A stretch of DNA of 60,972 bases, the filler included, from Bipalium vagum (lineage: Eukaryota): assembly GCA_037834085.1 (NCBI GenBank). It is 3 parts of 3 records of this genome, joined end to end, with 100 filler letters (N's around TTAATTAATTAA, not from the genome) between each part and the next. Parts side by side here need not be neighbours in the genome. Positions count along the whole stretch, not along the records: positions 24,806 to 40,540 come from JBBMKC010148634.1; 2 more parts are not named here. One strand, given 5' to 3'. Below the pieces are notes generated by a model. That model did not search any database. It had not been told where the DNA came from and saw nothing but the letters and a program-made list of their open reading frames with translations. Made by a program: the position numbers and the translations under genes. Positions 1,906-36,200 of the stretch are shown one piece after another; position 1 is the first letter of the stretch; every line of letters begins with the position of its first letter.

Positions 1906-2142
1906 CTTATCAATTAAAAGAAATGAACTTGTTAAAATTGATTTCTCATTATATTTTACTTTTTAGGTCGAATAAATCTATATGTTAAATGAAAGTTAAA
2001 AAAATTCGCAACTTCTGAAAAAGGGTTAGATCATCAGATTAAAAAATATTTATCTTGTAGTTTTCTTAATACCTTTCTTTTGCGTAGTCTGTATTATGTT
2101 GAAGTATATCCGGTTTGCCATTGTAAGATCACTGTAATAATT

Positions 2143-3046: not shown

Positions 3047-4643
3047 ATTACCAATGAGCTTAAAATCAATATTCATAAAAGGATTGCTTTTCATTGTGTA
3101 CTAATGCTGTAATTTAATAAAATTTTTCCGTAATCTGAAATGAAAAGAAATCGTTTTTTTCGAGATTAACATAATCAGAAGAAGAAATTGGTAATTAGCT
3201 CGAATTGAGTACAATTAGAAAATCTCTTGCATATCAAAGACCATCAAGCATACAGTATGATATTCATATTTATTGTAATGATAATATAAATAATTATGAT
3301 AATAATATTATTATCTTTTGTCATTTGTATACTTCTGATAATAATATAATAATATAATAATAATATATATATATTATATTACTTCTGATAATAATAATAA
3401 TAGTAAAGTATAATGATAATTATTTATTTATAATAAGCAAAGTAATAAAAATGTCTCGTTCTAACAGAGTCACTTTCAAAATTATTGTAGCCTTCACAAT
3501 TCAATATTTTTCAACCTTTTCAAAGATGTCATACTGGTTTTCCAAAGATGAAATATGTATGAGCATATCCGATTACATCAGAAGTTTTAGAAATTTTAAG
3601 ATTCATATATCTTCTATGTGTCTCAGAAACATCTTGCAGTCAAGATGTTTATTTTTATTTTCTAAACATGAACTTATCATAACTTCATACTACGATAGCT
3701 TTCACTGTCTTACTTTGGGTCTCACAATTTAGAGTCACTTACACTTCCATTTTCTTTCTATAACCAATTTTTCTAGGATTTTAAAAATGATTTTTTGCAT
3801 TTTTCATAAATTTTCAAGTCAAAACATTAACATTCTACAAATGTATATTCAATTTTCTCTGACAGAATTTCTTATAATAATGAACATGTTCACAAAATCT
3901 TTCAATTTTTCTTTGAGTGGTCATACATTCCTTGAAATGTTTTATCAACTTTTTGATTGAGACTTAGAATTTTTTTCTCGTATACATTTTTGAAAAAAAA
4001 TTCCTCGTCGTGACTTATTGACGAATTTTTTTTCTATAAATAAAAATAAAAAAATCAGTCATTGCTCTATATTTCAGTCCCTGTCAAATTTGATTTTAAA
4101 TAAAATTATTTTAAAGATACAAAGTTATGAACGTCTCCAATTTTTGGTGTGTGCTAACCTTTTACTTTGTTATATTGAACTTTTTCTTTCTTCTCAAAAT
4201 ACAAAACCAATAATATTTTACTGTTAAGTATACCAACTCCGGTTATGGATAATAAATGGGTTCAAGATAAAATTCCTCAAATAATTACGTTATCTTTTTC
4301 AAATAAGAAGGTTAAAAATATAAATAAAATGGTAATTTGATAAAGGGAAAGTTTGAAAAGTATTTAACCAAAATATTTATAAAAATCAGCCCGAGTGAAA
4401 AGTAAAATTTTCATAAATACAAAAATCCATTGAACCATGAAATTAGATTTGGGCGCAAATTCTAAAATTTTTACTAATTGGAAAATCCATAGTATTCTAA
4501 AAATTATTAACCAAACTTTTGACTGGATTAATTTTGAGATTTATTTATTTTAATATAAATAATTGGAAATAATAAAATCGATAATTAAAATTTTAATAAT
4601 TTATTTTAATTGTTAAAAAAAGTAAAAAAAAAAAAAGACTAAC

Positions 4644-4800
4644 TGCATTTTTATTGGAAATAGTTAATTTGCAATTGAGGATATTGCTGAAATCCACAAC
4701 ATTCGACCAATCGCTTCTGAGGGAACCTAATATGGTATTATTGAGGTTCTCAGATGCTGGTATAGGGGACATTACTTTGAGAATTATTATCACCCGAAAT
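4644..4800 (-). CDS. Exon of Ig/FN3 gene: C-terminal half of FN3 domain (R|FRVIIILK...RSDWSNVVDF)
   Basis: ttctag acceptor and gttagt donor. The phase-2 start joins the 14115 donor in frame, giving AALR-FRV...S-x-WS-x-x-V, the FN3 F/G strand signature. Confidence 0.75.
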
Positions 4801-6098
4801 CTAGAAAATTCAAAATTATTTTTTACTTAAAACATAATAATACTTATTTGTACCATTTTCTGATAATTATATTAAATAATTTTCAAATAATAATTAAAAT
4901 TGAATTTCCTTTCTAATACACCCAAGGTTTTTTTTTGTTTTACTTAATCACTTTTTAGGTATCATGCAATAATAGCTATTTAAAATATTTAAAAATATTA
5001 TTTTCTTATTAGGATTGTTACCATTCAATTGAATTTGGATTCAATCAAGTAACTATAGATCATGAAACAGTCGTTTTATTTAATCGTTTGTGTCAATAGT
5101 GCTTCCATAAATTATGATGAATTTAATAAAAATAAAAATTTTAATGAAAATAATAAAAAACTAATATTTTTACATTAGGACATTTTCGCTTCTTTGATTT
5201 TGTCATTTTCTGAAATCAGTGGTGTCATTTAAAATGTATTATTATTTTTATTAAGACTAAATTATTTTTTAGATTAACTTTAACAGTTAATGTTAACTCT
5301 TTAGATTCAAGTTTATACACTTTCAATGCCATTTAAAAAGCTTTCCATAAACTATTCTTATGTATCTGCCCCAGATGCATTTTGAGAGATAGTGTTCAAT
5401 GCTGATTTTATTTTTTACCTGGTTTGATATGCATTGTAAGACACCAAGCGGACTTTATAGAACAGAAATTAATCAAGGTTAAAATTTAACAAATTTTTCA
5501 ATTTATGATTACTTTATGGTTCATTATCATATTTTGGAAATATTTTTACAAGAAAGGTCGTTAAATTCTATGTTTCATTTCGTACTGTTATTTAATGTCA
5601 TGACTGTTTCATTATTAAATAAATAATTTATTTTTCAAAAGGATAAAGTAAAGCCAGCTGTCTATATTAGAATTAGTTGAAATCCGGTCTTGGTTCTCGA
5701 TATGGTTACAATGTATTAGAATCAATATACTACTTTCTTGAGTAATACCTTTGGGAGAATGAGTTTGGGAACAAAGATTTCTATATCTTTAAGTTAGATT
5801 AAAGTTAAGTTAGATTCTAAAAAATATAATCTTATTAAATTTTTTATATCTATAATAATATATGAAAGTCAAAAACTAAATATAAAGACAGGTATCATTA
5901 AAATGTTTATTTTAATGGATTCAAAAGTTTCAAAAGAAAAAGGTGACCATTTTATTTTGTGCAAAACAAAGAGACCTTAAAACCCAAACAAATAAGAAAA
6001 TGAGTAAACTTGATAAAGACAAAGAAAGATAAAATCAAGGAAGAAGAAAGAGAAAACAGAAAAAAGCGTTCAATCTTAACCTGCTCAAACTTTTTCTA

Positions 6099-7133
6099 TT
6101 AAGGTGGTTGTAATGTCTTCAGACTAATTATTGGTAACTTTGTTTTGTTTTAACCTTTTATTATTGCATCAACAAATTATTAGTAAGTTTTATATATCAA
6201 ATTAAAGGCTTTGTTTTACAGAATCAAATGGTATATTGATTTTTATTTAAATCCCGCGGTCAAACGTGAAGCTGTTGAAGGAAATCCCATTACAAGTCAA
6301 CGAAGACTTTTAGGAGAACTAAATTTGACAAAATCAACAGTCCATGATCATCTGCATAGGCTGAAAAAGTTAACAAACAATGTAGGGAAATTCCTCATGA
6401 ATTAATCTATGAGCAACAAAAACGAAGCATCGAAAATTATCAAAAATTGTTACATAATCCATATAATGAACTATTTTTTAAACGAATCGTCACTTTGGAC
6501 GAAAAATGAATTTATTCAACCAACTATAACTTGCAAAATCAGTGTCTCGATTCAAATCAACAAGCTCTTGAACTATCAAAATGAGAACGCTTAGCAAAAA
6601 AGGTTCTTTTGTGTATTTGGTGGAATTGCGAGGGAATAGTGAATTTTAAGCTTCTTCAAAGAGGGCAAACTGTCAATGCCGAATTCTATTCAACGCAATT
6701 AGAACGTGTGCTTGAAACTTTGAGGTCCAGCTATCCTTACTTAGTCAATCGTGAACGCATTATTCTTCAATATGATAATGCCAAACCGCATACTTTGAAG
6801 GTAACACGCCAAAAATTGAATCGCTGCAATTTGATCTTCTCTCTCACCCAGTCTACATTCCAGACCTAGCGCCTTATGATTACCATTTATTCATGTCAAT
6901 GGCACATTTCCTACGGGGACACCTCTTTGATTCGGTTGACGAGGTAGAAAATACCTGCCGAGAATTTTTCGCTTCGAAAGACAATGTAGATGAATCAATC
7001 AGATTGAGGAAATATGACAGAAGAATATTAAGCACTATGGACTGTATATTAAAGAATAAAAGTTTGATTTATATATTTTATGAATTTTTTGGATTTACCT
7101 TAAATTAGTCTAAAGATTTTCCGACCACCCTAA
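6099..7133 (+). mobile_element. Decayed, internally deleted mariner DD34D element
   Basis: ~30-bp imperfect TIRs (ttaaggtggttgtaatgtcttcagactaa / ttagtctaaagattttccgaccaccctaa) with TA target duplications. Motifs VTLDEK, KKVLLCIWWN, LQYDNAKPH and PDLAPYDYHLF are spread over frameshifted ORFs. Confidence 0.93.
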
Positions 7134-7429
7134 TATTAATTTTTTCATTATACCTTTGTTATACGTTTTCTTACAACAGCTATTATTTGATGTGAAGACG
7201 CCGGTATCTGTTTGACTAATATAAATTTTGTTTTTAATCTAATATCTTTTTCACTTTATTTCTTTTATTTCACTGTCAAATATAATGAAATTAAAAGGTA
7301 TAAAAATAAGATTTATCTAGAAGGGAAAATTGAAATATGATAGACGTAACTGTGGATACGATATGAACAACAAAAAATCCAATTTAAATAAAGTTAAGGA
7401 GCTTTTTTGCTTCATAATAAAATTTTTAT

Positions 7430-7711
7430 TCATATATTCAAGAAAACAAAAGAAAAATTATCAAAAGTTGAAATTATGCAGCTGGGCTCATCATCAATGC
7501 AGTCCAATTTTATCATAAAGTTTTTTGGTTGTTCAATCATCTGAAGAAACAGGTGCGAGGACATAAAGTTGTTGTCAAAAATGATATGAGGAATAAGGTG
7601 CCAAAATTTCTCATATAGAAGGATCAAAATTTTTTTGGAGACTTCAATGGAATGGTCGACCCGTGGAAGAAGTGAGTCAATGTAAATGGCGGTTTTGTCG
7701 AGAAATGAGAC
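7430..7711 (-). CDS. Candidate coding exon of unknown affiliation (VSFLDKTAIYIDSLLPRVDHSIEV...FLNI*)
   Basis: AG acceptor at 7713-7712 followed by 93 open codons in a GC-richer island. Lies inside the long intron of the Ig/FN3 gene. Confidence 0.3.
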   Translation of the reverse strand, partial: VSFLDKTAIYIDSLLPRVDHSIEVSKKILILLYEKFWHLIPHIIFDNNFMSSHLFLQMIEQPKNFMIKLDCIDDEPSCIISTFDNFSFVFLNI

Positions 7712-8379
7712 CTATAATGTATACTCATTGTTAAATTTTTTATTGGCTTGAATTTATTATTGCTCATAGGATCTAAGCACTTTTTGGCATAACTGAGTAT
7801 ATATGCACCTACTTATATATAATTTTTTCCATAATAAAACTATAAAAAGGCAAAAATAATTTTCCTTGAATTAAGTTTACAGTAATATTAATTTTCTCAA
7901 AATAGAACAATAAGGATTAATCAATAATGATACAAATGTCATAGTGTCAAAATGTTTCTTATAAAACATTAAAAATATGAAAAAGCTCAACTGAAAATAA
8001 TAAATAAATAATTTTCATAAATACGATAAGGATTCATTATTTAGTTTGTTATATTTCTTGTTATAATTAAAATATAAATATTTAATAAGTGAATAAAAAA
8101 TGCTTTTCCAAGAAATCGTCCTTGTATTGTTTACAATTATACCGTGTATTTAATAAGTCACTACAATTTTAAAGTGATATATTGATTACAAATATAAATC
8201 TTAATAATGAATAAGTAATTAATAAAAATGTTTTTTCAGGTAATTGTTTACATTCGAATTAACGAATATTTCAGTTAGTTTTATTTCATCAATTTAAACA
8301 TTAACATCAAGACTTTCAAATGTAATTAAAAATGTTTTTCTTTTCACAAAATCTTTATCAACAGTTCAGGTTGAAAGGA

Positions 8380-8830
8380 ATCTGAAAGTTACAGGATACA
8401 AGGAGAATCGAACCAGATTGATAATTAAAGCGCTTTATTCAAACGAGATTGATTGCAGACCCGAGCAGCTAACGAATGCCGAAAACATTTGTGAAAGCAA
8501 ATAAATCTCAAATCAAGGCAATTTTGAACGGGAGGCATAAGTTCACTTTGAGACAAATTTCTGCCAAAACTTAAATAATTCGGTCCATGATTTGGAATTA
8601 TATTAAAAATGACTTCTCTGTTAAGTCAAAAAATTCAAATGCAACAATATTTAGAACCTAGGCAGATGTATCCACACCGCTGGGGACTTCGTACCCTATC
8701 GAAATGACCAATATTTCGAAAATTTAATATTTTTCCGATGAATTCACTTTCCAGTTATCGAGTTATATTTAAACGTACTTTTCATAAAATTTATATACGA
8801 GATAAAATGTATAATAATACATTTCCATGG
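8380..8830 (+). mobile_element. Tc1-like transposase remnant
   Basis: Remnant reading (I)FSDEFTFQL around 8725-8760 matches the Tc1 first-Asp motif FSDE. Heavily decayed, no TIRs found. Confidence 0.55.
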
Positions 8831-11800
8831 AGAGGTGCTAATTGATTTAATACTTTTGGTAAAAACGGTTATATCTCCAAATAATTTTTTATAAAGGTAC
8901 GAAGAGAACATGTTGAAATTAATATATAATATCTATATCCGTTTAATATCCACAAAGACGATCCAGTCTAGTGACGGATTAAGATAACACTGAATACAGA
9001 TAAAATTTTCACATACCTAACAAAAATAAATCCCTGTAAAGAGAGAAGAGCCGGCCATATTTAATTATATATTTTTTAAAAGAGAATTTAGAGAATTTAT
9101 TTATTTTAGAGAAAGATAATTGTACTTGGAGAGGTTTTCTTTTTGAAAACTATAGACATATAATCTTTACATCTTTCCAAATGCAAATGATATTTAACAA
9201 TGCAAACGAAGAGAAATTTAGTTTCAACTCAATGTCATTAAATTTGATTCGAGAATTAATTAATTTTATATATTTATTTATCGAAATAATTACTGAACTA
9301 ATTACAATAATTGTTAATTTGTTTTAATGTCTATTTAGCAAGTGTCAAAACTGCTTAATGTGATGGTAAATTTATTTTCCCAATTTTTTGTAAAGAGAAA
9401 ACAAAACTTGTTTTGTCAAAAATAACGAAAAATGAAATTATCAATACAATTACCAAAAATTATCATAATAATATTTTTATGTTCCATAATAAATTATTTA
9501 ACAAAAATATGGAAATATGTCGATTAACTTTCGACGCTGTCGATATCAATCAATTTGAGGTATTAGCTTTTTTAAAATTTATTTATTTATTTAATATTAA
9601 TTCCTATATATATATATATACTTTTTAGCAAATCAAATTACAATAAATGTTTCAAATATTTCTATTACTCTACACAGATACGGAAAAAACCGCCTTGTAT
9701 TTTTCTGTATTACTTTAATTAAACAACAGAATCTATTTGGCATATAGTGAAAGTTTTATGGAATTGTGTTTCAGTATTAATAAATTATTTGTTTAAATTA
9801 GCAAAGGATACATTTAAGAGAAAATAATAAAAAAAACTATAATTTATTTCTTTAAAAAATTATGAATGTTTTCAGTTAAGCACAATTAAATTTGTTCCAT
9901 CATTTAAAATTGTTTGCCGATAAATTAAGTACAAATTTATAAAAAAAAGTATGAGAAAAAGGATTACATTATTAACAAATTCTCTACTGTAAAAAGGCAG
10001 ACGAAAAAATTTTACGAAATGCAAATTATTTTTTTCTTCAGATACAATTTGCAAATTAATACTTAGCTTTTATTTTCTATACAAAATTATGAAAAAATTA
10101 TTATTATTCTTATTATTATTGTTATTATTATTAATTATTCTTTTTATTATTATTATTATTATTATTGATAATATCCAATAATAATTTTTAACAAGAAAAT
10201 TAAATTTTTAAAAGATATTTCTTATATTTTTTAATGGTTATATTAAAATATATTTGATATTATTGTGTCGGCAAGGAGAAAGTAAATATTTTTACTTTTT
10301 AATAAAATTAGTTATTAATTATATTTATTTATACTTAAATTTATTTAACAATAAATAAATAAAATCACTTTTATTCAAAAGTAACTTTAAAAATGTGAAT
10401 ATATAATATTTTTATTTATCAAAATAAATTTTATGCGTAGTTGTTCTTGATAATAATATTTATTTTGCTTCGGTAAATAAGATTAATAAACAAAGCTGAG
10501 GATTTATAAGATTACTGACGTTTGCAAAAAAACCATTAAAGCTTGATTTGGGAAAAAATGTAAGCTTAAGTAATTAATAAGATTTTTCATTTGGTTAGGA
10601 AAATAAGACTATAGTCTCGACTGATGGTTACTCAATTGATTACCTGAATCAAAGGGTTATTTTTTGGCTGTGGAGCATAAAAATATTAAATGATAAGTAC
10701 GTATGAAATGAGAGTGTAATATAAGTAGCGATATAAAAAATCAATAATAAAATAATTTGAAAAATTCGGACCACGTTTACAAGTGATTTAATCGACCTTT
10801 GATGGTTAAAACGAAAATATTAAAATTAACTCTTGACAACAATCAATAGTGATGTGGCATGGTCCATCATCATTTTTTATCAGTTTGCACTTACCTGATT
10901 TGAATGAAGCCAAAAGGTCGGTCAAAAGAACACACGTATTTTAATTTTATTTATATATAAAACAATCAGCTGTGTTTCCATACATAGTAGATCACACAAC
11001 CGGTCCAAGAGCACACCTATACCTCTATAATTTGAACCCAAATCTCTGGAAAAATGAAATCAGTTATACATCCATACATGTAGGTGTATAGCTGGTTCAA
11101 TACATTATAATAACACAAATGAAGATTTTATATAATATTATAGAGATTTTATTATAATTACGGGGTATAAGGAAAGAGATGACAGAAGACTAGAGGTTGG
11201 TATAGAGAGAGTTAATGTGATAAGTCTGAGCAATAACCGACTCAATTAAATGATTTATTTGCTTTTATCACAAGACTAGCCTTTTGATTATTCTGTCATT
11301 TTTGAGACTTGTTCAAAGATTTCTGCAAACTACTTGTAAACAAAGGTATTATGTATTTCATTCCAAAAGAATAAATAAATTCCATCTATATATGGGTTCC
11401 GTTGTAAATTAAACCTTCGAATAATAATTTTTCGTAGAATCTTCATAATCTACTCTAATTTTGAATGTTCACCTATTAAAATTAAAATGAACTCCTTAAT
11501 TTAGATTTATGCAAATGATTTAAAGTAATTCAAGGTTGAATTTCATAATTAAGATAGTTATAAAACGCGGTTATCCCTTAATGTGTAAGATTTCAACTTT
11601 TTACAGCACGCCAGTTATGATCTTAAAACTGAAAATTCCAAAAAGCTTTTCTAAACTCCTTGTAATCGTAATTACAGCATAATATTCAATTTCTGAGAAA
11701 TTCAGTGACAGTGGAATGTCATTCTCCTATCAAATAGTTCGCAACCGTCATATGCATTAATTAGCTCTCTTTGAAAGGCAGCCAGAGCAGTCATTGATTT

Positions 11801-12109
11801 TATTTGTAAGTCGTCATCATTTGAACTTCAAAAAATCCAAAATATTTATCAAACAATCATTTAGACTGAATTCTAATTTAATAATAATAATAAATCTAAA
11901 GTTGACTTAATTTCCTAATTGGTTTATATAAACAAAAATATCAGTTGTTGAATAATATTGCTATTTAATATTTTAATAGTAAAATATTTCCAACATGTAA
12001 ATATTTTTTATTATTTTTAAGTTTTTTTCTAAAAATAATTTTAAAATATTTAGATTATAAACACAGCTTGTTATGTAAATAACCGAACTCTATTGATACA
12101 CATTATATT

Positions 12110-12440
12110 ATTCATAAAAGATAATAATTATTCAAAATAGGTTCCATTGGATTCCATACAACATCTGGCACACTCAGTTAATAGATTTTTCAAAGTCATT
12201 TAAACGAATTTTCTTGAGCACCAGTGTCACGGCTGCTTGAATAGCTTTGAACATCATAAAAAATACACTTTTGTTGCCAATTTCACTTTTTGGAATAGAA
12301 AAATAGCCGCATGATAATATACCAGGAGAATATCATGGATGTCCGATGACACAATTTTTTTTTGGTCAAAAATTTACAACCTTTTATGGACCTGTGGGGT
12401 GGGGCATTGTCGTGCAATAAAAAAACTGTTTTTCTTGAAA
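12110..12440 (-). mobile_element. Mariner transposase C-terminal remnant
   Basis: Minus strand reads HDNAPPH and GHP*YSPGILSCGYFLF (decayed HPPYSPDLAPCDYFLF). Confidence 0.8.
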
Positions 12441-14114
12441 TGAAACTTTTAGTGTATGATTTAAATCAAAAGTTCAGTTACTTATATAACTTACCATATA
12501 TTTATTTAATCACTGATTATTTCTTTTCTATTAAAAGTTACCTACATATGAAGAAATGAATTTTGGATAGAATGAAGAATGGCAGTATAAAAAAATAAAT
12601 CATTAATGAACTATTCTTAATAAAAAGTAGAAAGAAATAATTTTCATAATAAATCTATTGATCGAAATCATTTGCATATGAAATTAGCAATTCATAAAAC
12701 TGAGTTTGGAGGACATGAAATAAGAGAAGGAAACGAGTTAAGAAAATAATTAGATTACAACATATGGAAAACTATGTGCTTCTTAGTTTTATTTCATATT
12801 ACTTCTAGGTTGTTTTATTTTATCATTGAATCGATATATAGTGTAAAATGTGCACTTTCCAGATCTAAATAAATGAAAAATTTCACATATATTTGATGTA
12901 AAAATTAGAAATGACTATTTTGTTTATGAAAAAATTTCTTTTAATATACTTATTATAAATATTTGTTTAAATTATATTTTTCACTAGCTTAAATTTCGAC
13001 ATTTTAAAAGTGATTGTAATATATATTCTTTTGTCAAGAAGCATGTTTTAACTTCTGACAAATAAATATAATTATTGGCACATTTTAATTGTTCTGTATC
13101 TTTAAAAGAAAAAAAGCAACCGAAAGTGACGTCATTATTGTAGAAAGATATGGTGACAAAACTCTATCTCAAAAAAATTCGAAAGTTGGTTCGCAAGTTT
13201 AAAAAAGTTGAGAGACAAATTGGATTAACAAAACTTTGTATAAGATATCTTCACTGTTGGCTGAATATAATCTCAAGAAGCGATTTCTTGGCTGTGGTTT
13301 AATTAAGTTAAAAATGTAAACCTTTTTCAACAGATACCAAAACTCTATAAAGTCAGTTAGAATATTTCTAAAATATAATGAAAGATATTCTGTAATAATG
13401 AGACTATTTGGTGAGGGTTTTCAAAACTTATTCTATTTATATTGATATAGATGGAATAGTTGTTTAAATTTATTAACATAAATGTAAAACTGTTTCTAAA
13501 GTGTCCTGCATAAAAGTAATAACAATTAACCAATTATTAAGATTCACAGGACCAAGAAAGGCAAAGAATAAATGAGAAACATTAAAATTCAACATATTCC
13601 AAAGAAAGAATATATAAATAATTGAGTAAATTGTTGAATGAATTTTAAGAAATAATAATGATAATATTTTGTGCTCATTACCATTAATCTCATGTATGTT
13701 GTTCAACATATTTATATATTGTTATTTATTTATTACAGATAAAAATTGATCAATAAATTTGGCAATGATTACAAAGTTAGGGTCGTGAACAGAAACAAGA
13801 ATATCTTTCATTACTGTTCGGGCATAACTAATACATATAAATATTTTGTAATTGGAATGACAGGTTTGCATTAATTATTTGTTAATATGGCCAACTCTAC
13901 TTTGAGTAGCTGAGATAATCTTTCCTGAAACCTTGGCTATGGAAAACCGCTTAGGGATAAATTCTCACCAGCATATACTACAGCACTTTGTTGATATGGA
14001 AATTAATCAGAAAATTAAAACACACACGTCAGAATATTTTATAACATTTGAAGTGAAATAAATTAAAATTAAACCGAGTTAATGATTTTTGTAATAATCA
14101 CTAAAAATGTTTAC

Positions 14115-20769: not shown

Positions 20770-21498
20770 GAATATATTATCATTACTTTCTTTGAAGTAA
20801 TTCATTTCTTTGTAACTGTGATTGGCTGAGCATCTTAGTCTAGCCACTGTCCTGAACGTCTGGTGTTGTCAAAGAATATCCATTTTTCATCACTGGTAAT
20901 AATTCTTATGAGGATAGCCTCTTTTTTGATTCTTAGCAATAAAGAAGAATTGACCAATTTTAAAAAGTTTTTTACTTTCCATTTTTTAACATGATCGGAA
21001 ACTGTTGTGTTATCTATTCAAAATATATCTGCAAGTACACCAGTTGATCGTTGAGTTGGACTCGATTTTGGGTTTTTAAGAATTATTATCAATCGCTGAT
21101 GGTCGACCTTAAACGAAACTGGTCTTTAATAAATGTGTCCCCAGAACGGAACCGTTTGAACCAATGCTGAGTATCTCGTTTAATAACCAATTCATTACTC
21201 CATGCTTGGCAATTATTTTGCACAGCCTCTGATGCATTTTTCTTTAACTTATATTCATAAAGTAAGCAAGTTCTAATTAACGACGTTTTCATTGTCTGTT
21301 AAATAGCATTTTATATTATTAAAACAAACCAAAATAATGAAATAAAGTTTTAATTTTATGGAGATTTTTAATTTTAATGCTTTACCTGTCTTATTATTAT
21401 TTTTAATCAATAAATATATAAATATTAGTCGATATTTTTAAATAATTTTGCTTTAAAGTTAGTATATGAAAAGGCGACAGTACTTTCCCTCAACCTAA
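20770..21498 (-). mobile_element. Mariner element, 5' half
   Basis: TIR ttaggttgagggaaagtactgtcgcc at 21498. ORF MKTSLIRTCLLYEYKLKKNASEA...QHWFKRFRSGD, with downstream ITSDEKWIFFDN. Confidence 0.88.
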
Positions 21499-24094: not shown

Positions 24095-24519
24095 CTAATA
24101 AAAATATAACATCAATTCGTTTTTATTGATTTTTACATAATATATATTTTTATATATACGATATTATATTTATTGAAAAATGGTACATCACATACATTAA
24201 ATATAATACCTAGACAAATGTTAAGTGAAGAGTATAAGCGAGAATTGCAGAAATTGTTCAAGACTGAACAATTATTTACTAATATTAAAATTATTACAAT
24301 TATCAGCTGAAATGTGAAATATACATATATACATAATATAAATATATATTGTAGAGCACGAGATAATAAGCATTTATATTTGTTTTATAATAGATTTCAT
24401 GATGCATTGTCCAACAGAAATTGTGGAATTTCAGAAATCAGACTATACATAATATTATTATTTAAAGTTTTTATATAAAATAATGTAACCATACTAAAAT
24501 ATTGATTTAAAATAATAAT

Positions 24520-24705
24520 AATAATAATTAATCATTAATAAATAAATAATAAATAATTAATAAATAATTAATAAAGAAATCATAAATAATTAATAAAGAA
24601 ATAATAAATAATTAATAAAGAAATAATTAATAATTAATAAATAATTAATAAAGAAATAATAAATAATTAATAAATAATTAATAAAGAAATAATAAATAAT
24701 TAATA
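24520..24705. repeat. AT-rich minisatellite (~ataaagaaataataaataatta units) running into an assembly gap
   Basis: Direct reading. Confidence 0.85.
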
Positions 24706-24805
24706 NNNNNNNNNNNNNNNNNNNNNNNNNNNNNNNNNNNNNNNNNNNNTTAATTAATTAANNNNNNNNNNNNNNNNNNNNNNNNNNNNNNNNNNNNNNN
24801 NNNNN
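24706..24805. other. Artificial contig linker 44N-TTAATTAATTAA-44N
   Basis: Exactly 100 bp. The 12-mer has stop codons in all six frames, and an identical structure occurs at 40541-40640. Confidence 0.95.
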
Positions 24806-24950
24806 GTCATGATTGACAGCTTAACTGGCCAATCAGAGACACTAAAATGAACAGTAAAATAGTATATAAGCCAGCGAAAATTCATTATTTTTCGCCCAGA
24901 GAATTGCCATATAAAAGGTTTGTTTTATATATAATTGGTGAGCGGCCCGA
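24806..24950 (+). promoter_or_regulatory. LTR-like promoter segment with CCAAT box, TATA box and PBS-like TGG start
   Basis: CCAAT at 24829, TATATAA at 24863, GCGAAAA/TTTTCGC hairpin at 24874-24895, ATAAAA ~24911, then TGGTGAGCGG at 24936 (resembles the tRNA-Leu PBS TGGTGGCAGCGG with a 2-nt deletion). Truncated by the gap and no second LTR seen. Confidence 0.45.
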
Positions 24951-25074
24951 TGTGGTATACGTTGGCTAGAGAGAGAATTTGCGAGCCTGTATTTTATAAA
25001 AGTTTAGGAGGTTGTGTCCGAATTTTTTAGCTTTATAGGCTGTATAGTATAAGAGCCCGAGGAGCTTCATAGGG

Positions 25075-25712
25075 ATGCTACCTACGCCTACCAGTATCAG
25101 AGCAGAAACTAAAGATAGTTTGAGAAGACACTACTTTGTAAAACTGGCTGAGAAATATCAAAAGAAACATGAAGAACTTTATGATATGGAAACAGCGGAT
25201 GACCAAAACATTATTAGAAAATTAATAAACTTGATGGATCCGTTAAATGAGGATAGATAAATTAACTCGTGACAATTTTGAAGAAATCCAAAAGGTTGTT
25301 AACGATTTTGAAGATTTTGTGAATGAACAAAGTAATATAAATGATGATTTGGTTCTAAAATATTTAGTAGAAGAAGCAGTAGATAAACAAAAAGTTTTAG
25401 TTGGTATTACGATGATATTACAAAGGTTATTAAAGATAAATAAAGAAGGTGGAGGACAAAGCCTAGATTTGTTATTAAGGAAAGCTAACAAGAAAATAAA
25501 TGATTTCTTTGTTCCATGGCTCAAATTACATCAGGGATTGCAAGGATTATTACTCACAAAGAAAGATCAATCAGAGCGACAACAGAAATCAAGAAAAGCA
25601 GATCCAAGGAATTGTAGACGTGAATATACAAGAGAAACAAGAAGTGAAGATGATTCAGAATACGAGCAACTTAGAGGAACTCCATAGAAGGGAGCAGGAG
25701 AGATCAGAGTGA
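25075..25712 (+). pseudogene. Frameshifted helical/coiled-coil ORF of unknown family (gag-like position) upstream of the glycoprotein
   Basis: Overlapping ORFs 25075-25260, 25247-25687 and 25500-25712 with E/K/L/I-rich amphipathic composition. No CCHC knuckle or RT/integrase motif recognised. Confidence 0.5.
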
Positions 25713-27520
25713 TAAAAGCCATCAAATATGTGGCTACCAATGATGATATTAATCATGTTTATGAATATGTTGGACAGAGGAAATTCTTAGTAGCTTACGA
25801 TTGTAGCAAACCTAAGATTGGTAATATATATTCGCTAATGGATCTAGAGGAATGCCCAGAAGCATATCTAACCAAAATGAAACAGACTAATCTACCAGGA
25901 AACGGAATTCAGGACAACTCAAGTAAAATAATGTAATGTGACAAAGCCATCTTTTGATTATTAATGTGGTGTTCACAGTCAGACAGATTTCTTAGATGCA
26001 ACAAATGATTCCTGTGCCAGTAATAGTAAATTCCGAAAATGGTGAAGCAGCATTCGTCACACACAAATTACAAATAACCGCAGGATTGGCAATAGATGCC
26101 AAGAAAGGTGTTGTTAGAAAGAAATTGTTATTGAAGGAGGATCAATTTAATCAAATGGAGAATGCACTGGAAGAGACAAATACAGACAAGGAACAAAAGT
26201 TAATTGGGTGATAACATACACACATTACCAAGTAGAATTGAGAGAATTCGAAGGAATTTTTGATGCGGTCACGGGAAAAAGGTTATTACACCCGTTTTGC
26301 AATTCAAAGCGTTCTGTTTGTAATACTGGAGAATCATTACTCGTTTACAATATACCGGATACCATGTGTTATATGATGTTTCTCAAAAAAGTGGTTTTTA
26401 TCCAGGTAAAAGGAGAAAAAGAAAGGGAAGAAGTCACAATGGGAAGAAAAGCAAATAAAATTTATAAATCATCGGAAAAGGTACAGAGAGAAAGAACACC
26501 AATTGTTTTATTCAGTAAACACAAGCCGAAGGAGTCAGGTTTGTGAGAAAAGAAAGTACTTTAAAATGTAATGTATCGGTATATGCAACTAATCACAAAG
26601 GGGTATTTGTAAGCCAGAAAAGTTGATAAAATGGAAATAAAAATGGTGAATTATGTCAATACGAAAATAGATTCTATCTATCATTTGCTGAAGCAATCGA
26701 CAAGTGAAATCTATCACGAACTTGTGACAAATGATTGTCGAATCATTTATCTGAAAAATCGATTTGCAATGATCATTACCAATCCAGATTTGGTAGCTCC
26801 AGTGTTAATGGCTGATCAAGAAGTATTCGCTAGGATAATGAGAGAAGACATGCGCAGTAGTAAATGTGCAGTTACGACGTCCAGAAGATTGGACAAATGA
26901 ACTTCCAGTTGTGTTGGAAGAAGAAAGATATGTGGCACCAGTAACAAAAATATTACTGCCAAAAGATGTCAGACCAAAAGTGCTGGAATGTGGAGCGGTG
27001 ATTTCATCAATTTATAAAGTTACAAAATGGATGTCACTTCCCGAAAGAAAAGAGACTGGAAAATTAGAAAATTTTGAGTTAGTTAAAATTGAACGCGATG
27101 CAAAATTTGATGATTTGACAGGAGGAGGAATATATACTCAAGAGGATATCGAAGAAGCAAGACGGAATATGTTATTTCCTGAGATGCGAGAAAGAATATT
27201 TACTAATTTTGTGGATAGATTAATAAATAGTGATGGACGAGTAATTGGAAACCCAAAGTACGAAATTTTATTGATCCCCGAACATTTCAAGAAAGCAACT
27301 ATGGAAATGCTTAGGAAAACATGGGGAAAGTTCACTGGTTTCAGAACATTCATGACAGGATTAATTGGGATTTAAACAGTTTTTATGATTGCTAAGTGGG
27401 AACTTTCTCAAAATACAAATATACAAAATGATGAACATTGCATAAAATATTTTCCCGGGTAAATTACGGAGAAGTCCCTGGTTTGTACAAAATTCCTGAA
27501 ACTTGACACAAAAAATAAAG
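25709..27520 (+). pseudogene. Decayed chuvirus (Jingchuvirales)-like class III fusion glycoprotein
   Basis: Collinear motifs: LVAYDC..P.....SLMDLEEC (25793); YQETEFRTTQVK*C...Y*CGVHSQ (25965, cf. CGMHSH); CNVSVYATNHKGVFV (26561, cf. CGY...TEHPKLFI); YVNTKID...IYHELVTNDC; NPDLVAPVLM...SKC; NELPV....YVAPVTKIL...C; GIYTQEDIE..R..MLFPE.R; WGKFTGF.TFMTGLIGI, leading into a broken TM region. Confidence 0.88.
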
Positions 27521-28323
27521 ATATCTATAAGAAATAGAGTTAACAATCCTGAGTTAATTAATAAATTAAACTTATTATTAGCTAATTTGTACCTTTGAAA
27601 GTGATTATCATTTAACAATACTTGTATTGATTTACGTTTACATTCACAAATTAAATAACCATTGATATTTTATATAAGAAAAATTTGATAAGCTAATATA
27701 TGGTCACGCCACGATTTGCTGAAAAAAATAATTAAAAATGACTAATCAATATTAAATGTCAATAATCACAGCTGATTTAAAAGAAATGACTTGTTCAACC
27801 TAAACAAATTTTGTTTAAATGTTATTGAAATTTTGTATTTCAATTGAATCTAAAAATCAATAAAATATTCAAAACTGATTTTAGTATGATCATATAATTT
27901 CTAAAATTTAGTTATATTGAAATATAGAATTTTCTAAAATAATCAATAAATGTTTTACAACTATTTTTAAGTTTCTAAAGAAGCGTCGACAATTACTTAA
28001 AATTTTCTCTGCAAAAAATCACGTATTTCGTTGAGATCAAAGTTTACAAAATTTCGTTTTAAGAAATAATCAGAATTTTGTAACGTTGATTTACAGTATA
28101 GTAAGGACTTTAATTAGTTCATGAAAAGAAACCAATTCTGATTTCGTATTGAAAATACAAAAAAAATTAACAAGTTCATTTAGCAGAAGGTAATTCGTAC
28201 ACACTACATTTGTACCTTTTGATACAATGAGAATTCTTAAAAATATTGTAATTTTCTAAGAGAAAAAAATATTAGATAGATAACATAATCTTGACATATA
28301 ATATTAATATCAAATGAAATTAC

Positions 28324-28988
28324 TTTTGTCGCATTCTTCTTGGGATATTTGAATAAAATATTGAAAATCATTATGACAGTTAACAAAAACAATAATATAA
28401 ACATAAGTCGTATTGCATAATAATATAGGCAATACTTCCATCCAAATTGAGAGCTGATGCTGTGCTTGATTTCTTTAAATTCTATATTGGGTTGAACTAT
28501 GTTCGGTGAAAACTTGACAAATTTGAATACTTCTTCATTACCTGGAACTTTTAATTATTATCACACTGTAATAATCACTAACCGTTGCTAATATAAAGCC
28601 AGGAAAAATAATGCTGAATATGGATGCTTCTAGACGACAGTACAGCACTGAAAATAATATTAAAAAAGCAATAGATTTACTGATTTAAATTCAACCTTTG
28701 AAGTGTTTTTTTGGAAAAAATCTCATATCCAACCTTGCAACCTCTGTTGCATTGAGATGCAATTTTTGAGAAGGCACTATATCCAAAATTACAATTGTTT
28801 TCACATATTGTTAACTTGTTTGCTTCTGTTAACTTGTTTTTATATGATAACACCTGATATATATGACACCCTGTTTCACAGATTTTATTACCATCTTTAT
28901 CAGCTTCTTTAGAACATTGTTCGAAACATACTTCCGACAATGAATTAACTATTAGCAATGAGAAAATAAATAGGACGAAAATATCCAT
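28324..28988 (-). CDS. TMEM59: TMEM59/TMEM59L-like single-pass membrane protein; exons 28681-28988, 28583-28647, 28324-28541 (3' end uncertain)
   Basis: Signal peptide MDIFVLFIFSLLIVNSLS; Cys pattern C-x3-C...C-x2-GC...C-x3-C...Y...C-x2-GC. In-frame splicing over 33- and 41-nt GT-AG introns gives SWLYISNGNEEVF (cf. SWTFYLQADDGKIVIF) and a TM helix LMFILLFLLTVIMIFNILF followed by KYPKK. Confidence 0.75.
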
Positions 28989-29449
28989 TTCAAATTTTTA
29001 CCAAAAATTCAGTTTATAACAACAAAACTAATGCAATTAAAGGGTAGGTAAGGTTTCAAATTTTATTTTTATAAATTTTAATATAGAAATTTTACAACGT
29101 TTAAAATTTTAATTGTAAATCGAAGAAAAAGAATATTTATTTGAAAATATTGTTTCAATGGAAATTGAAATTCTAAATCTTTTTAAAATATTTATGGAAA
29201 AACTAGTTAATTTTAGTTATTAATTTTGGATTTTAATAAAATATTTTTAGAGTTTTTCATTGTTAAATAGTAATAAGGGCATTTTTCAATAATGTTAAAA
29301 TTATAGAAATGATAACATATATATTAATTACATGAAAAGATGTACACATAAAAATATATATTACATAAAGAATTGTAAAACATTGAATTAAATAAAATAC
29401 TTCCTTTCTATCCAAGTCATCATAATTTATAAAATTTACTAAGTTACAG

Positions 29450-29880
29450 TATATATTCCTTGTTAAAAAAATTTTTTTTTATAATCCAATACACCTCTTG
29501 TCTTGTGGAAGCGTACATTTTTCATAATTAAAATTTTATTTGGGTTATTTTGGAAGAACGCAATTTTTCAATAATGAAATACAGAAATGTTTTCTTGTTA
29601 TATACTCCTTCACTTATTTCATAGGCTATAACAATATTGTTATTAATTGCACACAAGAAACTTTTTTGTTCCCTCGTTTAGCACATGCATTCTTAAATGC
29701 ATTAGTATTTTTAAAGCTGTGCGTTAGACTCTTGATGCATACAGAGTGAATCATGTTTCATCTAAAAATATATCAACAAATACCATGAAATACCCACAGC
29801 ATATATCAGTGGTTCCCATTTACTTAGTCGTTGCACACTGATGTGTCACGGTTGTGACTTTTAGTCTAAAATATTTTCCC
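29450..29880 (-). mobile_element. IS630/Tc1-like (DDE_3) transposase remnant
   Basis: Minus strand reads DET*FTL...KNTNAFKNACAKRG...CAINNNIVIAYEISEGVYN, matching the DETGFNL...RG.N.S..C.I......Y....GAYN pattern. Confidence 0.65.
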
Positions 29881-30848
29881 AATAACTATAGAACCTAAAA
29901 TTCTTGAAATATTTATTTTAAAGTAATATGTATTTTTATATTTTTTTGTTTGTTTTCAGTAATATTTTGTCAAATGTTGTTTTAATATGTATAATATATT
30001 TCAATTTTTTAAAAACTGACCTAAAAGTATGGGATATAATTCATAATCACTGATTTAAAAATTTGTTTTACATTAAATTTTTATTGATAATTACTTGGAA
30101 AATGACAGAAAGAATGAAAATATGTGATACTGAGATACAAAAATTATTGAAAGACAAGGAGGACAAATTTTCTTCAGCAACGGGAAATATATGAAATATG
30201 ATACCACAGAAAATGAAGAACTGCTTAAGAAATAGATAATGACATTTCACTTCCACATCGGAAAAATTGAAGTTATATTAATTTTTTTTTATAAAAATAC
30301 ATTGGAAACATGGAATAGAGTTCTTTGCCAACACATGTTGGATACTATGATAAGATATTGCTTAAATAAAATAACATTACCACCTGTTAAAAGTATTTTT
30401 TCCGATAGATGAGTTCATTATTTTTCGATAACGACTTTAAGTTTATTAAATTACACCAAGCAATGGAAAAATATTAAGAAAACTTAACATATATTGGATT
30501 GTTAATAAATATTGGAATAAGACAGCATATGATAAAAATATCCATTATACCCTAAAATTTTATTCTGAAATGATCGGTTTTAGATAACTTTTTTTCTTAC
30601 AAAATGCAAAACATCCGAATAGTACTTTTTTATGCAGGTGCAATACAGTGAAATCATCAATATAATAATAAACAATTATAATTTACCCTCTGATCACTCT
30701 TTTAACACTTCTTTAGTTAATTAACTTTTAAATTATTGAATTTTAACTTTATAAATTTAACATTAATTCCTAAATATTTAAAATCACATTAATTATTTAA
30801 TGACTTGTAGTACTGCTTTATTTTTTAAATTACAAAATGCCAACTTTA

Positions 30849-31492
30849 CAGGGTTATGCAGAAATATATAGAAAAATATATATAATTCTAATCAAAAATA
30901 TATAGAGAATTATTCAAAATATATAGAAAAAATATTCGATTGTTTCTGTCTGAATTTGTTGTTTACCAAATTTTGTAAAAATCAAATAAGATGGAAGATG
31001 AAATAAAGATGCATGATAATTTGTGTCGAAAGAAGCCAACCTCTATTAATAAAAATACCCTAAGAACAATCCGGCGAGATTTTGACAAAAATATACCGGT
31101 AAAGGTAATTTCAAAAAATGCGGGTACAACTGCAGCAACAACATGTAATGCAATCAACAAAATATCTGAAGGACTGACCGACGAACAAATTTTATCAAAT
31201 TAAAAAGGAAGACCCAGAAACTGCAATTATTATGTGAAAAGTCGAATAACTCAGATGTTATTAAAGGTTTTTACATTTATATTTATTTTTATCTTATCTA
31301 TTTTATAGGATTCCTCTTATACCCAAAAAGAATTTTTAGTCAGCCAAAGTACTGTCTCAAAGTCTTGGCGAGACAGAATTTATTTAGTGTACATTTGTTA
31401 TTTGAAATATATATTTTGAATAATTTTCTATATATTTTGAATAATGTTCTATATATTTTGAATATTTTTATATATATTTCTGCATAACCCTG
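30849..31492 (+). mobile_element. Internally deleted Tc1/IS630-like element (MITE-like) with long TIRs
   Basis: Perfect 22-bp TIR CAGGGTTATGCAGAAATATATA, TA duplications and inverted subterminal tcaaaatatatagaa repeats. ORF 30991-31203 is HTH-like and followed by *KGRP. Confidence 0.9.
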
Positions 31493-31548
31493 TAATTTAT
31501 ATCTAATTAATAGTAATTAGTAATTATCATTAATACCAATCCTTTTTT

Positions 31549-31970
31549 AAACTCTTAATTATGCAATATGGTATAATCTTTTTCAAAAATATCTCTTAAA
31601 TAATAACTCGTAATACTACGACAATCATATTATAATTACTTATGATAATTAAATGTTACAACAATTCTCACTTATTTGCTGTATTACTTCTATTAAATAC
31701 AATTTTAGCTTTAAATTATTTAACACAAACTTTAATATTAAACATAAATTGAAAATTCCTTTTATAAAACTCTTAATTACGCAAAATTGTATAACTTTTT
31801 AAGAAACAAAATCTCATTAATAATAACTTATACTATAATAATTATACTATGACATCTTATAATAATTGATAGTTGACAATAATTTCTCATTTATTTGCTA
31901 TATTACTTCTTATTTATACAATCTTAACTCTATATCATTTATCACAAACTCAAATAGCAAACATAAATTG
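31549..31970. repeat. Diverged ~220-bp tandem duplication
   Basis: Both copies begin aaactcttaatta(t/c)gcaa and end aaacataaattg, and share the internal ttatttgct.tattacttct. Confidence 0.8.
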
Positions 31971-33247
31971 CATTAATGCAATAATACTGTAAATTCTAAT
32001 AATTATGATAATATTTAGTATTAATAATGATACTTAATACTTAATAATAATAATAGGCAAAATAACAATAACATAAATCAAAATCATTTAAGTAATAATC
32101 GTTCTTGTAGTATTAATGATAATAACAGTAATGATAACAAATTAATAACAGTATTGATAATAATCATAGTAATGGAAATAATAATAATACATAATAATAC
32201 TATATTGATAATAATAATCATAAAAATTCTGATAATGAAAATTAATGATAATAACTGTAATAATATTTTTTAATAATAATAATCATAATAACAGTAATAA
32301 TATAATAGACTATAATAGTAACAATGCTATTATTATTGTGATAACTAATGATACGTAATAATAATAAATATTAATAAATACTATAACAACAATGATAATA
32401 ATAATAATTATACTAATGGTAATAATAACGAAAATAATAATTATGATAATAATTATGACAAAATTAGTGCAATGCCCTGTTCAAATGTATACTATTACAA
32501 TTTTTTATTCGTTCTTTTATTTCGGTATGTAAGCCGATTATAGAATACTTATTTAGAATTGACCGATTGACTGATAATATAGACTGAACTTTTTACTTGA
32601 TTGTGTTTTATCTCTCGGTATGTAAGCCGATACATGAGATAAAACACGCTTTAAAAACCTTCTAACCGTTAAGCTCTTAACCCGCTCCACTTTTTAAGAG
32701 ACTTAACAACAAGCTATTTATAAAAAATATTTTTCTAATTACAGAATAAAATATCTTCAGTTATTATAATTGTTAGAGAGAAAAAAACAAGATAAAAGAT
32801 ATGGTGAAAATTTTATACAACAAAAATCATTAAAAAAATGTAATATCTTTGATTTGCAAATTAGTTGGAGATTTCGAATGGGATTAATGAACAAGTAAAA
32901 CAAATTGTTCAATTTACATTTTTCAGTTTCTCATGTTTAATAATTATTATTATAAATGTTTTAATAAGCAGTTTGAGATAATAATAATCATTTTATTTCT
33001 AATATAACATATATCATCAAGTCTCATAAGTGACTTATTTACAGTTTGAAATGAAATACTACTTTTACTTAAATCGTTCATCAAATTATACTGTTATGAC
33101 TATCATAAAAATATAAATTTCATGATTTCATTTTCAATAAACATCTTTTGATATTTTTATATAAATAAGAACCACCATGTTTTAGGATGATCTGCAGTTT
33201 AAATAAAAATCTGTTATCATAAAATGTAAAACTATTCAACGTCATAT

Positions 33248-36200
33248 TTATTGAATATCCCATATTTGAATATGGTTGATAGCATCATCTTTACCAATGT
33301 CTTGGTTCGACTCTCGACTTGCTTTGCATGAAAAATCTTCATATCCATCTCCACCACAAATGACCTTCATCTGAGTGGCCATTGTTGTACAAGGACTCAA
33401 AGATTGTCTTCTCGATGACTGATGAGACGGTCTCACTGAGCTCTCTAAGCTTACAAGGAATCTAACATTACCTGTATGGCCCTTATCTAAAGCTGAATAG
33501 AATAAAACTAAAATTAATACATTGATTTCATGAGCCTTATCTTTTAAACCCAGAGTTCTTATACTTAATCGTTCGATTTTCAATTTATTAGAAAATAAAT
33601 AAACTCTTTTCCCTGTAGCAAAAGTTGCTTTTGTATTTATGGGGAATTAAGAATCACAGTTGAATTTTATTAGGCAGAGATAGATTCATAAATAATTCTG
33701 AAATATTTGTTTCAAATCAAAGATGAGAATTTTCCAAAGATGTAAATGGGGATATCTCATTTTCGCCATCTCTTGATTATTTTTTTTCATATTTTTGTCA
33801 TGTACATATGGTTACTTTTGCGATGAGAGCACTTTAATACAATAATTATAAAAATCCTAATTTTCAAAGGTATTTACATATATGTTCATTAAAGATTATT
33901 TTCTGGTCAGGAGTTGGTAGATTTCATGAATAAAAATTTCTTATTTAATAATTTTAAAAATCAAATATTTACATTCTACTTTCGGTTGAATAATATTTGG
34001 CTTGGTTGTGGAGGTGGTGACATTAGGAATTGGGATAGTAAGTATGACACCAGCACTAGTCCCAACCCACAGAACATCCTTACAGACTAGAAGACAAGTA
34101 ATACGCAAGCAGGCTTCTTTGTGTCGAATAATTATGTCGTCCCAAACTAAAAGACAATGTAAGAAAAATGTTAAATTAAAAATCAAAAATTATAAAAATC
34201 TATTCAGTTACAAGTTTTAATTATCTCTAAAATGTATCGTTTTTTTAAACTCAAAAATTAACTGTGCTTGAATCAAAGTTATTGTATTATTAATTTGAAT
34301 CAATAAACAATTTTTATCAATTTTATTTGTTAAGTTTGTCTAAGGATGGAGCAATTAACAAAAACGTAACTGAGAACTTAACGTTTAGATTTCATAAATC
34401 CTGTTCGAATTAAGGTAACAAAATCAAATGACTAAAATAACAAGATGTTCTATAAATTAAATTTGTTAATACCATTACAAACTGATTTCCTTTTAAGTTT
34501 ACAAATTAAGAATGATTATTCTTAGAAAAGTCTTCTGTTTAGAAAATATCCCAATTAATTAAAGAAGATAATCCTCTCACACGATATTATTATCAGTGAC
34601 TTTGAAGTCTTTAAGGAATGTAATACGATACTCTGATAAGTTTGAGAATAACTAACACCAAAATTATCTGGATCGGAAGTGAAGAAAGAAAGAAAAACTT
34701 AATTTAATCTTAGGGTTTAGATAAAGAAATAAATAAGAACATTAGTTAGCAATCAGTATTCTGACAAGACAGAGTTAAATCTAAGTTATTTTAAAGTGAA
34801 AAGAATACTGAATAATTCAGTAATTTATTGGTATTAATGAAAGATTGCTTATTTAAAATATGATGAATATAAGTATATTAGTAAAAGGAATCAGTAATTT
34901 AGAAGATTACTATCAGTTGTATCAATAAAGTTCATAAATTGATCCCAAAGAATATTAACAAATTTATAATTTTATCCATGGCTTTCAAACTATCTATTAT
35001 TGGTTTCTGGCTCCAATGATTTTCTTTTGGTCCGTTCCCTATGTGGACAAAGTAAAAAAGTAAATACTGACAACATTTTACCAAAATTATTCGATAATCA
35101 CTGAAAACAAAAGTATCAAATCTCAAATAGTCACATGAAAGGTCAACCGCTTTTGATCCGGTCAATTCTTTTTATCAGTTTGCTCAATTCACCTTCGAAT
35201 TCAATTCTATCTTTATCTTATAATCTCAATTTACAATTTCACCATAATTTCAATTCCTAATTTATTTGACATTAATTCTACCTTTACCTAATTCTAGTCT
35301 AACTCTGCTCCAGCTCAGCCAAAACGTATTCACCATAGCTGAATAATCAATTCTGCAGATGCCTTCATTTCTCAAGCTCACCATCTCCCATTTTTCATTA
35401 GTTAAATAAGAAACCGGAATTTTTAAATTATTAAGCTCAGTCCGAATGTATTCGCTGGAGCTGAATAATCAAGTACTTTAGGTTACCTAAAAAATAAATT
35501 GTTTATTTTAATATAGGAAAAGATTACTTAAATGATTCTGGAATATTTGAATTACTGTTATATATTATGAATTGGCCATTGAAATAGACTCAAGTATTAT
35601 TTTAAAAACAGTGATATAACCATAAAGTATAAGTTAACACCGGCCATGATAAAGAAGAGACTAGTTTGGGGAGTGAAATACAAACACTACGGAGACACAC
35701 TTTGGTCTAAAGTAAATAAAAATTAATTTTTAAAAAATGGTTTTCATTAAATCGGTTTAATTTCTTACGTAAAAAAAATATTTTTTGTATGAGTCTATTT
35801 CAATGGCCAGGTACTGTAGTATTATCAATTGTTAATATTATTATTACAAAGAAAATTATTTACAATGAATGCAATAAGAAAATCGATTTTTAAATAAATA
35901 TCATTAAAAATGAAAACCAGATTGATCATTGTAAGTCAACATTGTTCTGAAATCTTCGAATGAAAATGTCATAAAAACAGTGGAAATTATCTTAGACGTA
36001 AAATGATGTTACTTTATCTGTTAAACAGTATTAAGTTTGACATTATTTGATAAATTTTTTGTAAACATCACTTGTCTGCCTAAAAGTTCAGTGTGTAGGC
36101 CTGTTGTTGTCGCTGCTGCTGCTACCACCTCACAACAACACAGACCCAAAAAATATGGTCAGGAATCAGTCAGAATACAAAATCATCCCCGTTCGAATGA

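Follow-up and report, generated by a model that had tools for sequence, protein, structure and literature searches.

A broken gB-type fusogen gene in Bipalium vagum is probably a dead remnant of a high-copy Burro-like Ty3/gypsy retrotransposon

We analyzed a 60,972-nucleotide stretch of DNA (the window) from the Bipalium vagum assembly GCA_037834085.1. It contains a broken gene for a gB-type fusogen (env) and, upstream of it, an ORF homologous to a Bcl-2-like region. Very probably, both are what is left of one copy of a Burro-like Ty3/gypsy (GAG-ENV-POL) retrotransposon of high copy number, a copy that is now truncated and dead; the host is likely a planarian. The copy is classified as a decayed remnant and not as an intact member, because gag and the protease, reverse transcriptase, RNase H and integrase (PR-RT-RH-IN) were not found in it. 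The original prediction had considered a chuviral endogenous viral element (EVE) or a BEL/Pao capture. The data point elsewhere, as the nearest relatives are Ty3/gypsy GAG-ENV-POL elements, a Bcl-2-like ORF lies upstream, and the whole belongs to a high-copy repeat. The features of the element are listed in Table 1.

Table 1. Features of the element (positions in the window)
Feature	Position	Strand	Evidence or remark
Putative LTR-like end	24806..24935	+	CCAAT 24829-24833, TATATAA 24863-24869; 5' side cut by 100-base gap
TGG-initiated stretch where a primer-binding site would lie	24936..24949	+	sequence only
70-codon open frame, part of the repeat	25048..25260	+	depth 7,001 in bin 25023-25239
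146-codon ORF homologous to the Bcl-2-like pre-env region, stop at end	25247..25687	+	BLASTP, profile search
Signal-peptide-like hydrophobic env stretch, frame differs from next fragment	25728..25772	+	peak 11-residue hydropathy 2.31
env fragment 1, mature N-terminus with AYDC	25769..25888	+	PF24664 18-67; 40.4 bits, retroelement env profile
env fragment 2, two in-frame stops	25890..25982	+	translation; inside tblastn alignments of relatives
env fragment 3 (weak)	26002..26124	+	10.8 bits, E 0.019
env fragments 4 and 5 (two frames), domain I-II region	26154..26620	+	89.4 and 28.0 bits
env fragment 6, long central-helix region	26619..26873	+	PF24664 300-384; 67.0 bits
env fragment 7 through WGKF and the transmembrane stretch, stop at 27373	26848..27411	+	PF24664 383-557; 160 bits

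Sequence and decay of the fusogen gene

Three-frame translation placed AYDC at 25793, YQETEF...CGVHSQ at 25893-25982 with two stops inside, LKCNVSVYATNHKGVFV at 26561 and WGKF at 27322, so the motifs quoted in the original prediction are indeed where it had put them. Three of the eight fragments scanned matched the Pfam family PF24664 (Monjiviricetes_fusion) in the profile order 18-67, 300-384 and 383-557; their E values were 5e-3, 2e-5 and 2e-15, and only the last passed the curated cut-off. We also built a profile from 13 retroelement-borne relatives and ran it on the 3341 stop-to-stop frames of the window, each separately. Six frames scored at E<=1, all of them within 25688-27372 and collinear over profile positions 23-578 of 625. 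Since no other of the 3341 frames reached this threshold, the match is not due to chance. The stop-free pieces of fragment 2 were too short for a profile score of their own.

The six stop-free fragments at 25769-27372 are collinear with a Monjiviricetes-type (class III, gB-like) fusogen, and together with the PF24664 matches they bear out the earlier description of a decayed, near full-length chuvirus-like glycoprotein. To the fragments noted then, a signal-peptide-like stretch in another frame can be added; the relatives carry such a stretch just ahead of AYDC as well. Counting this stretch, the reading frame changes at least seven times and contains three in-frame stops, indicating that the gene is dead. 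This copy is unable to encode a full-length fusogen. A class III gB-type env with signal peptide, ectodomain and transmembrane (TM) segment is thus present, albeit broken. In tblastn alignments of the relatives, env similarity ended at 27411-27441, ahead of any protease. The 3' end of the extent proposed at first (25709..27520) was therefore too generous, the similarity and repeat signals stopping at ~27410-27440, and on the 5' side the repeat unit reaches at least to 24806.

The G+C and purine content of 24806-27500 is higher than that of the surrounding DNA, the GC content of the window being mostly 20-30%. The window held no second env copy. Searches in other collections were negative: a word-indexed protein search with the longest env fragment confirmed 0 of 621 candidates, two viral-contig scans confirmed 0 of 5 and 0 of 30 stretches, and a PDB sequence search with an env fragment gave no significant match.

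Predicted fold of the fusogen

The fold was judged on a model (pLDDT 78) of the relative P0047, which shares 40% identity with the last fragment and 28% with the middle one, and not on the broken gene itself. The model matched herpesvirus gB (Foldseek E of 1.3e-13; VIA Z of 11.5, rmsd of 8.2 and 392 residues aligned). It matched tick-virus and chu-like glycoproteins of the viral library far better than gB, with E values down to 9.5e-41 at 22% identity. One of these matches is Tacheng tick virus 4, which we take to be a chuvirus. The central helix of the model (residues 444-491) corresponds to env fragment 6. These matches of the modeled relative argue that the gB-like class III assignment is right, as the original prediction had anticipated.

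Relatives and domain order

A phmmer search of 1.84 billion representatives with the longest env frame as the query gave 68 matches, 19 of them at E<=1e-10. The 10 best had E values of 8e-29 to 8e-20 and 35-43% identity. An aspartic protease followed the fusogen in eight of these ten, and reverse transcriptase and RNase H were found as well in three of the eight; the other two were a Bcl-2-plus-env record and a 203-aa fragment. Almost all relatives were metagenome records, and no named planarian protein was among the search matches. A Pfam scan covered 30 of the 68 matches and four cluster mates. The polyprotein continued to integrase in P0048, P0052, P0089, P0114 and P0117. In P0126, the order was Ty3 capsid, two CCHC, Bcl-2, env, protease and ankyrin, to which P0127 adds the SUMO-like PF11976. 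P0052 (HBK71150.1) is labeled as a Flavobacteriaceae MAG protein, yet it is an env-bearing Ty3/gypsy polyprotein; the contig behind it is likely eukaryotic and was mis-binned.

A metagenome scan confirmed 3 of 63 stretches (L001, L002 and L003). L002 contains a 3,703-codon frame with CCHC, ubiquitin-like domain, env and pol. The same order is seen in L001 and L003, which are incomplete; neither L001 nor L002 showed direct repeats of 40 nt or more. Judged from these sequences, the relatives encode a single polyprotein in the order Gag (capsid, CCHC), ubiquitin-like domain, Bcl-2-like domain, hydrophobic signal, fusogen ectodomain, TM, protease, reverse transcriptase, RNase H and integrase. In L001 and L002, the polyproteins run past integrase into a hydrophobic-ended extension. 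An accessory ORF further downstream encodes an RNase_T-family exonuclease domain (L001:10617-12107 and L002:12085-13473), and both loci have a coiled-coil ORF as well. The Burro description consulted here (PMC6431247) makes no mention of the exonuclease ORF, the coiled-coil ORF or the extension.

Every scanned relative with a reverse transcriptase had Ty3/gypsy-type domains and env upstream of the protease, and no Pao-type Pfam family was found among the scanned relatives. This bears on an origin of the window env from a BEL/Pao element of the Anakin type. Anakin elements of mosquitoes carry a chuvirus-like glycoprotein, often as solo or defective copies (PMC7642597), so the same fusogen family does occur and amplify inside an LTR retrotransposon, and the high depth described below would fit. 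However, Anakin is of the Pao and not the Ty3/gypsy type and lives in insects, and, judged on the relatives only, the pol type and the env position make this origin exceedingly unlikely.

The same scan speaks to a Maverick/Polinton origin, for which there is precedent in the gB-like fusogen MFUS-1 of nematode Mavericks (10.1101/2022.07.12.499685), likewise a fusogen on a mobile element. Atlas look-alikes of the env fragment included an 11% DNA_pol_B_2 cluster and a Preplasmiviricota cluster, but the Atlas score was 1455 against a recognition threshold of 2300. As described, these Mavericks are DNA elements with pPolB and capsid genes; no Maverick domain occurred in the 30 of 68 relatives scanned, and the window scans gave no pPolB, ATPase or capsid. 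We regard this origin as extremely improbable. The Polinton-flavored Atlas lead for the env fragment and a bacterial AAA_13 lead for the upstream ORF were both below the recognition threshold and were dropped.

Phylogeny and comparison with stand-alone glycoproteins

Stand-alone glycoproteins of ~650 aa were weaker matches, with 24-31% identity and a best E of 1e-7 at 26%; those bearing names were beetle genome proteins. The longest env fragment scored 160 bits on the retroelement profile and 97.8 on a stand-alone glycoprotein profile, a comparison that is partly circular because the retroelement set includes the best matches. A tree was computed from a single unjoined 174-residue frame over 177 columns, with 55 of 77 proteins kept and 22 dropped for short coverage. 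The window env fell within a set of 14 rows, 11 of them retroelement, with support of 96/95, and all 18 stand-alone glycoproteins lay beyond a 99/98 branch. The retroelement label of P0047 and P0070 was based on the Bcl-2-like region, and that of P0122 on its being a cluster mate of P0073. The original prediction had proposed a phylogeny with both exogenous jingchuviral and retrotransposon-borne glycoproteins. The grouping with the retrotransposon-borne copies was obtained, in a short, midpoint-rooted tree whose rows do not include named exogenous chuviruses. By sequence, the window env thus groups with the pol-linked Ty3/gypsy env proteins, apart from the stand-alone glycoproteins.

These results weigh on the reading of a one-off endogenized chuvirus (Jingchuvirales) glycoprotein, in which viral RNA would have been copied into DNA by reverse transcription and integrated in the host genome. 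The PF24664 match and the best viral-library matches of P0047, to tick-virus and chu-like glycoproteins, are what such an EVE would give, and Jingchuvirales-type glycoprotein EVEs, which share the Pfam family, fold class, endogenous state and decay of the window gene, are frequent, with reports from as far afield as Nematoda and Malacostraca (PMC10084718). However, these EVEs are more distant in sequence, form a separate clade, have mostly arthropod hosts and are described there without a Bcl-2-like ORF ahead. The stand-alone glycoproteins score far lower, and the ORF upstream of the window env has its homologues in retroelement polyproteins and lies under the same deep repeat signal. A one-off insertion is thus very unlikely.

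The upstream Bcl-2-like ORF

The ORF at 25247-25687 aligned with residues 23-139, the pre-env region, of P0046 (BLASTP E of 1e-7), and it was the sole significant match of a five-relative profile among 1301 window frames (E of 3e-7). PF00452 was matched by segments of three relatives in alignment A2 but not by the window ORF. The four-row profile A2, composed of the window ORF and these three relatives, matched Bcl-xL at E ~1e-3. The BH2-like end of the ORF is degenerate, and several close relatives have no Bcl-2-like motif ahead of env. Its model had a pLDDT of only 53; this low-confidence model gave no Foldseek match at E<=0.001, 22 of the 46 weak rows listed being redundant Mcl-1/Bcl-xL/BCL-2 entries, and its best VIA hit (Z of 6.8) was to unrelated helical chains. 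The ORF can therefore be called Bcl-2-like by transitive homology only; a region homologous to the BCL2-like segment of the relatives lies directly upstream of the window env.

A single stop separates the Bcl-2-like region from env in the same frame in both L003 (3058-3060) and the window (25685-25687). The other relatives read through this boundary, and the stop may reflect decay or programmed read-through. The 70-codon frame that precedes the ORF had no Pfam match and no significant match to the relatives.

Copy number and boundaries

Depth was taken as the summed depth of contigs from one public DNA run (X1), which may itself be the source of the assembly, and it gives no calibrated copy number. 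Among 30 bins, 24806-25022 was the deepest, with 46,197. Depth was 1,463-12,793 in 11 bins over 25023-27409 as opposed to 26-89 in 8 flank bins, and it dropped from 4,662 to 32 at 27410. The contigs of this run thus covered 24806-27409 50-500-fold deeper than the flank. Because this step ends exactly where the protein similarity ends, a large repeat family is the best reading. The repeat unit 24806-27409 exists in many genomic copies.

The stretch 24806-40540 has no assembly gap, and the 3' junction is bridged by a 2,040-nt contig (27345-29384; depth of 25) with 0 differences. On a 6.5-kb stretch that includes a second repeat, 2,028 contigs had identities from <90% to >99%. The second deep repeat (30882-31300) reached a summed depth of 22,383 over a 74-codon frame without Pfam match. 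Contamination, or a mis-join with a free virus or episome, could be imagined from the 5' end abutting a gap and from the very high depth, which a replicating entity might produce. However, the gap-free sequence includes spliced ARHGEF17 exons, the bridging contig is exact, the contig identities spread widely and the gene is heavily decayed, leaving this explanation a negligible probability.

Among 47 HSPs from 15 polyproteins, none lay outside 25769-27441 of the window, indicating no gag, protease, reverse transcriptase or integrase remnant there. The env-pol linkage in the present host is therefore deduced from the relatives. The repeat search found no paired LTRs in the window and no second copy of the LTR-like segment, and the window contained no tRNA gene for comparison with the TGG-initiated stretch. 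The LTR-like segment lies only ~0.3 kb ahead of the Bcl-2-like ORF, whereas intact relatives have kilobases of gag there. In the linker between the two, near 24,990, depth was ~345, roughly ten times single-copy. The LTR-like segment may belong to the same family as env or to an unrelated repeat. Comparable dips are seen within env at places of divergence of this copy, and so the arrangement may reflect a private deletion, a small non-autonomous subfamily or an unrelated repeat.

Flanking genes and repeats

The C-terminal exons of an ARHGEF17 orthologue lie at 33251-39330 on the minus strand, with a mariner copy within a 4.7-kb intron; tblastn detected no upstream ARHGEF17 exons in the window. 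An exon search gave 44 matches of 49 candidates, in which molluscs, a brachiopod and an annelid (65-71%) came ahead of two arthropods. Named spiralian matches spanned 58-76% overall, and one record was 95% identical. The host is therefore likely a spiralian, and a nematode or insect host, entertained early on, was dropped in view of these matches. With these as its best named matches, the gene agrees with the earlier view of an integration in a non-insect animal genome. The very short host introns described before did not hold for ARHGEF17, the one gene mapped, with introns of ~0.1, 4.7 and 0.5 kb.

Exon-like stretches on the minus strand flank the element (28988-28680, 28647-28437 and 24094-23826), with a signal peptide, a cysteine-rich part and an Ig domain. 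This suggests that the element sits in antisense orientation inside an intron of a gene for a surface protein, with splice phases that are not cleanly joined and a gap in between. A Pfam scan of 59 further window frames matched nothing but a mariner HTH and, weakly, a hydrophobin, and the flanking minus-strand gene therefore carries no name. At least five decayed Tc1/mariner transposase copies are present (6585-7105, 20838-21298, 36824-37867, 41857-42303 and 44709-44879). An 11-bp AT-rich tandem array of 18 copies (24510-24805) runs into the 100-base gap with a fixed 12-base spacer. Since the same spacer gap recurs at 40541, the gaps after the array and at 40541-40640 are scaffold joins of unknown size.

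Comparison with known elements

Burro, a giant Ty3/gypsy element described in PMC6431247, has gag, CCHC, PF11976, BCL2-like and env regions as well as ankyrin repeats, and env lies between gag and pol in the same frame. Its env matches mononegavirus-type fusion proteins, and decayed fragments occur in Dugesia japonica. Burro/GYPSM1 of Schmidtea mediterranea and other Dugesiidae resembles the window in having a BCL2-like region directly before env and many copies; its order of gag, CCHC, PF11976, ankyrin and pol is matched by the relatives of the window env, and the D. japonica fragments have stops and frameshifts like the window copy. Compared to that description, however, the window copy lacks gag, pol and the ubiquitin-like domain, measures ~2.6 kb as opposed to >30 kb, and has its LTR-like segment near the Bcl-2-like ORF. 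BURRO1 was reported to be silenced by PIWI (PMC8532177).

GAG-ENV-POL elements with an HSV/gB-type ENV have been reported in Nematoda, Bryozoa and Platyhelminthes, including six errantiviruses of S. mediterranea (Smed_errantivirus_1-6) with 1-215 intact copies per family (PMC13524379). Window 26235-26351 was identical by eye to Smed_errantivirus_1, as given in the supplement, at 25 of 39 residues, versus 20 of 39 for P0047. Together with the AT-rich DNA, this closeness favors a planarian host. Seven of the eight cysteines in the domain I-II row of Smed_errantivirus_1 have a counterpart in the window, consistent with the same fusogen class. The six families are intact, whereas the window copy is dead, and the term Bcl is absent from the main text of PMC13524379. 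Given these elements and the EVEs of Nematoda and Malacostraca (PMC10084718), the new host-range extension claimed in the original prediction had already been reported.

Discussion

In intact elements, an internal signal would direct the ectodomain into the ER, where signal peptidase would free its N-terminus, and the TM would bring the chain back to the cytosol, where the protease would release the enzymes. Env trimers on budding particles would fuse the particles with new cells. The Bcl-2-like domain would stay in the cytosol, where the cleaved signal would hold it at the membrane much as the tail anchor holds cellular Bcl-2, and it would probably delay apoptosis of the producing cell. This scheme builds on what is established about the topology of membrane proteins and about class III fusion. 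The window copy was likely inserted by retrotransposition, after which a deletion or truncation removed gag and pol and the sequence decayed. It may serve at most as a source of piRNA or antisense transcripts.

An unlikely alternative is that the LTR-like promoter, the Bcl-2-like ORF and env form a small multi-copy, non-autonomous Burro-derived subfamily without gag and pol. Such elements would be mobilized in trans and would by themselves express both a fusogen and an anti-apoptotic protein, as a satellite-like or receptor-blocking unit in an animal rich in stem cells. The sole hints of it are the short distance from the LTR-like segment to the Bcl-2-like ORF and the depth of ~345 near 24,990.

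Striking as it is to find a class III fusogen and a Bcl-2-like domain in front of pol in one retrotransposon polyprotein, this arrangement has already been published, and we found no functional test of either domain in such elements in the literature consulted. Read as a dead Burro-like remnant, the window copy contributes a further host family but hardly anything beyond that, unless the subfamily without gag and pol should be real. Outside insects, chuvirus-like G fragments in a genome can stem from the env of ancient Ty3/gypsy elements, which is likely an annotation trap. Such fragments would therefore be no record of chuvirus infection or host range.
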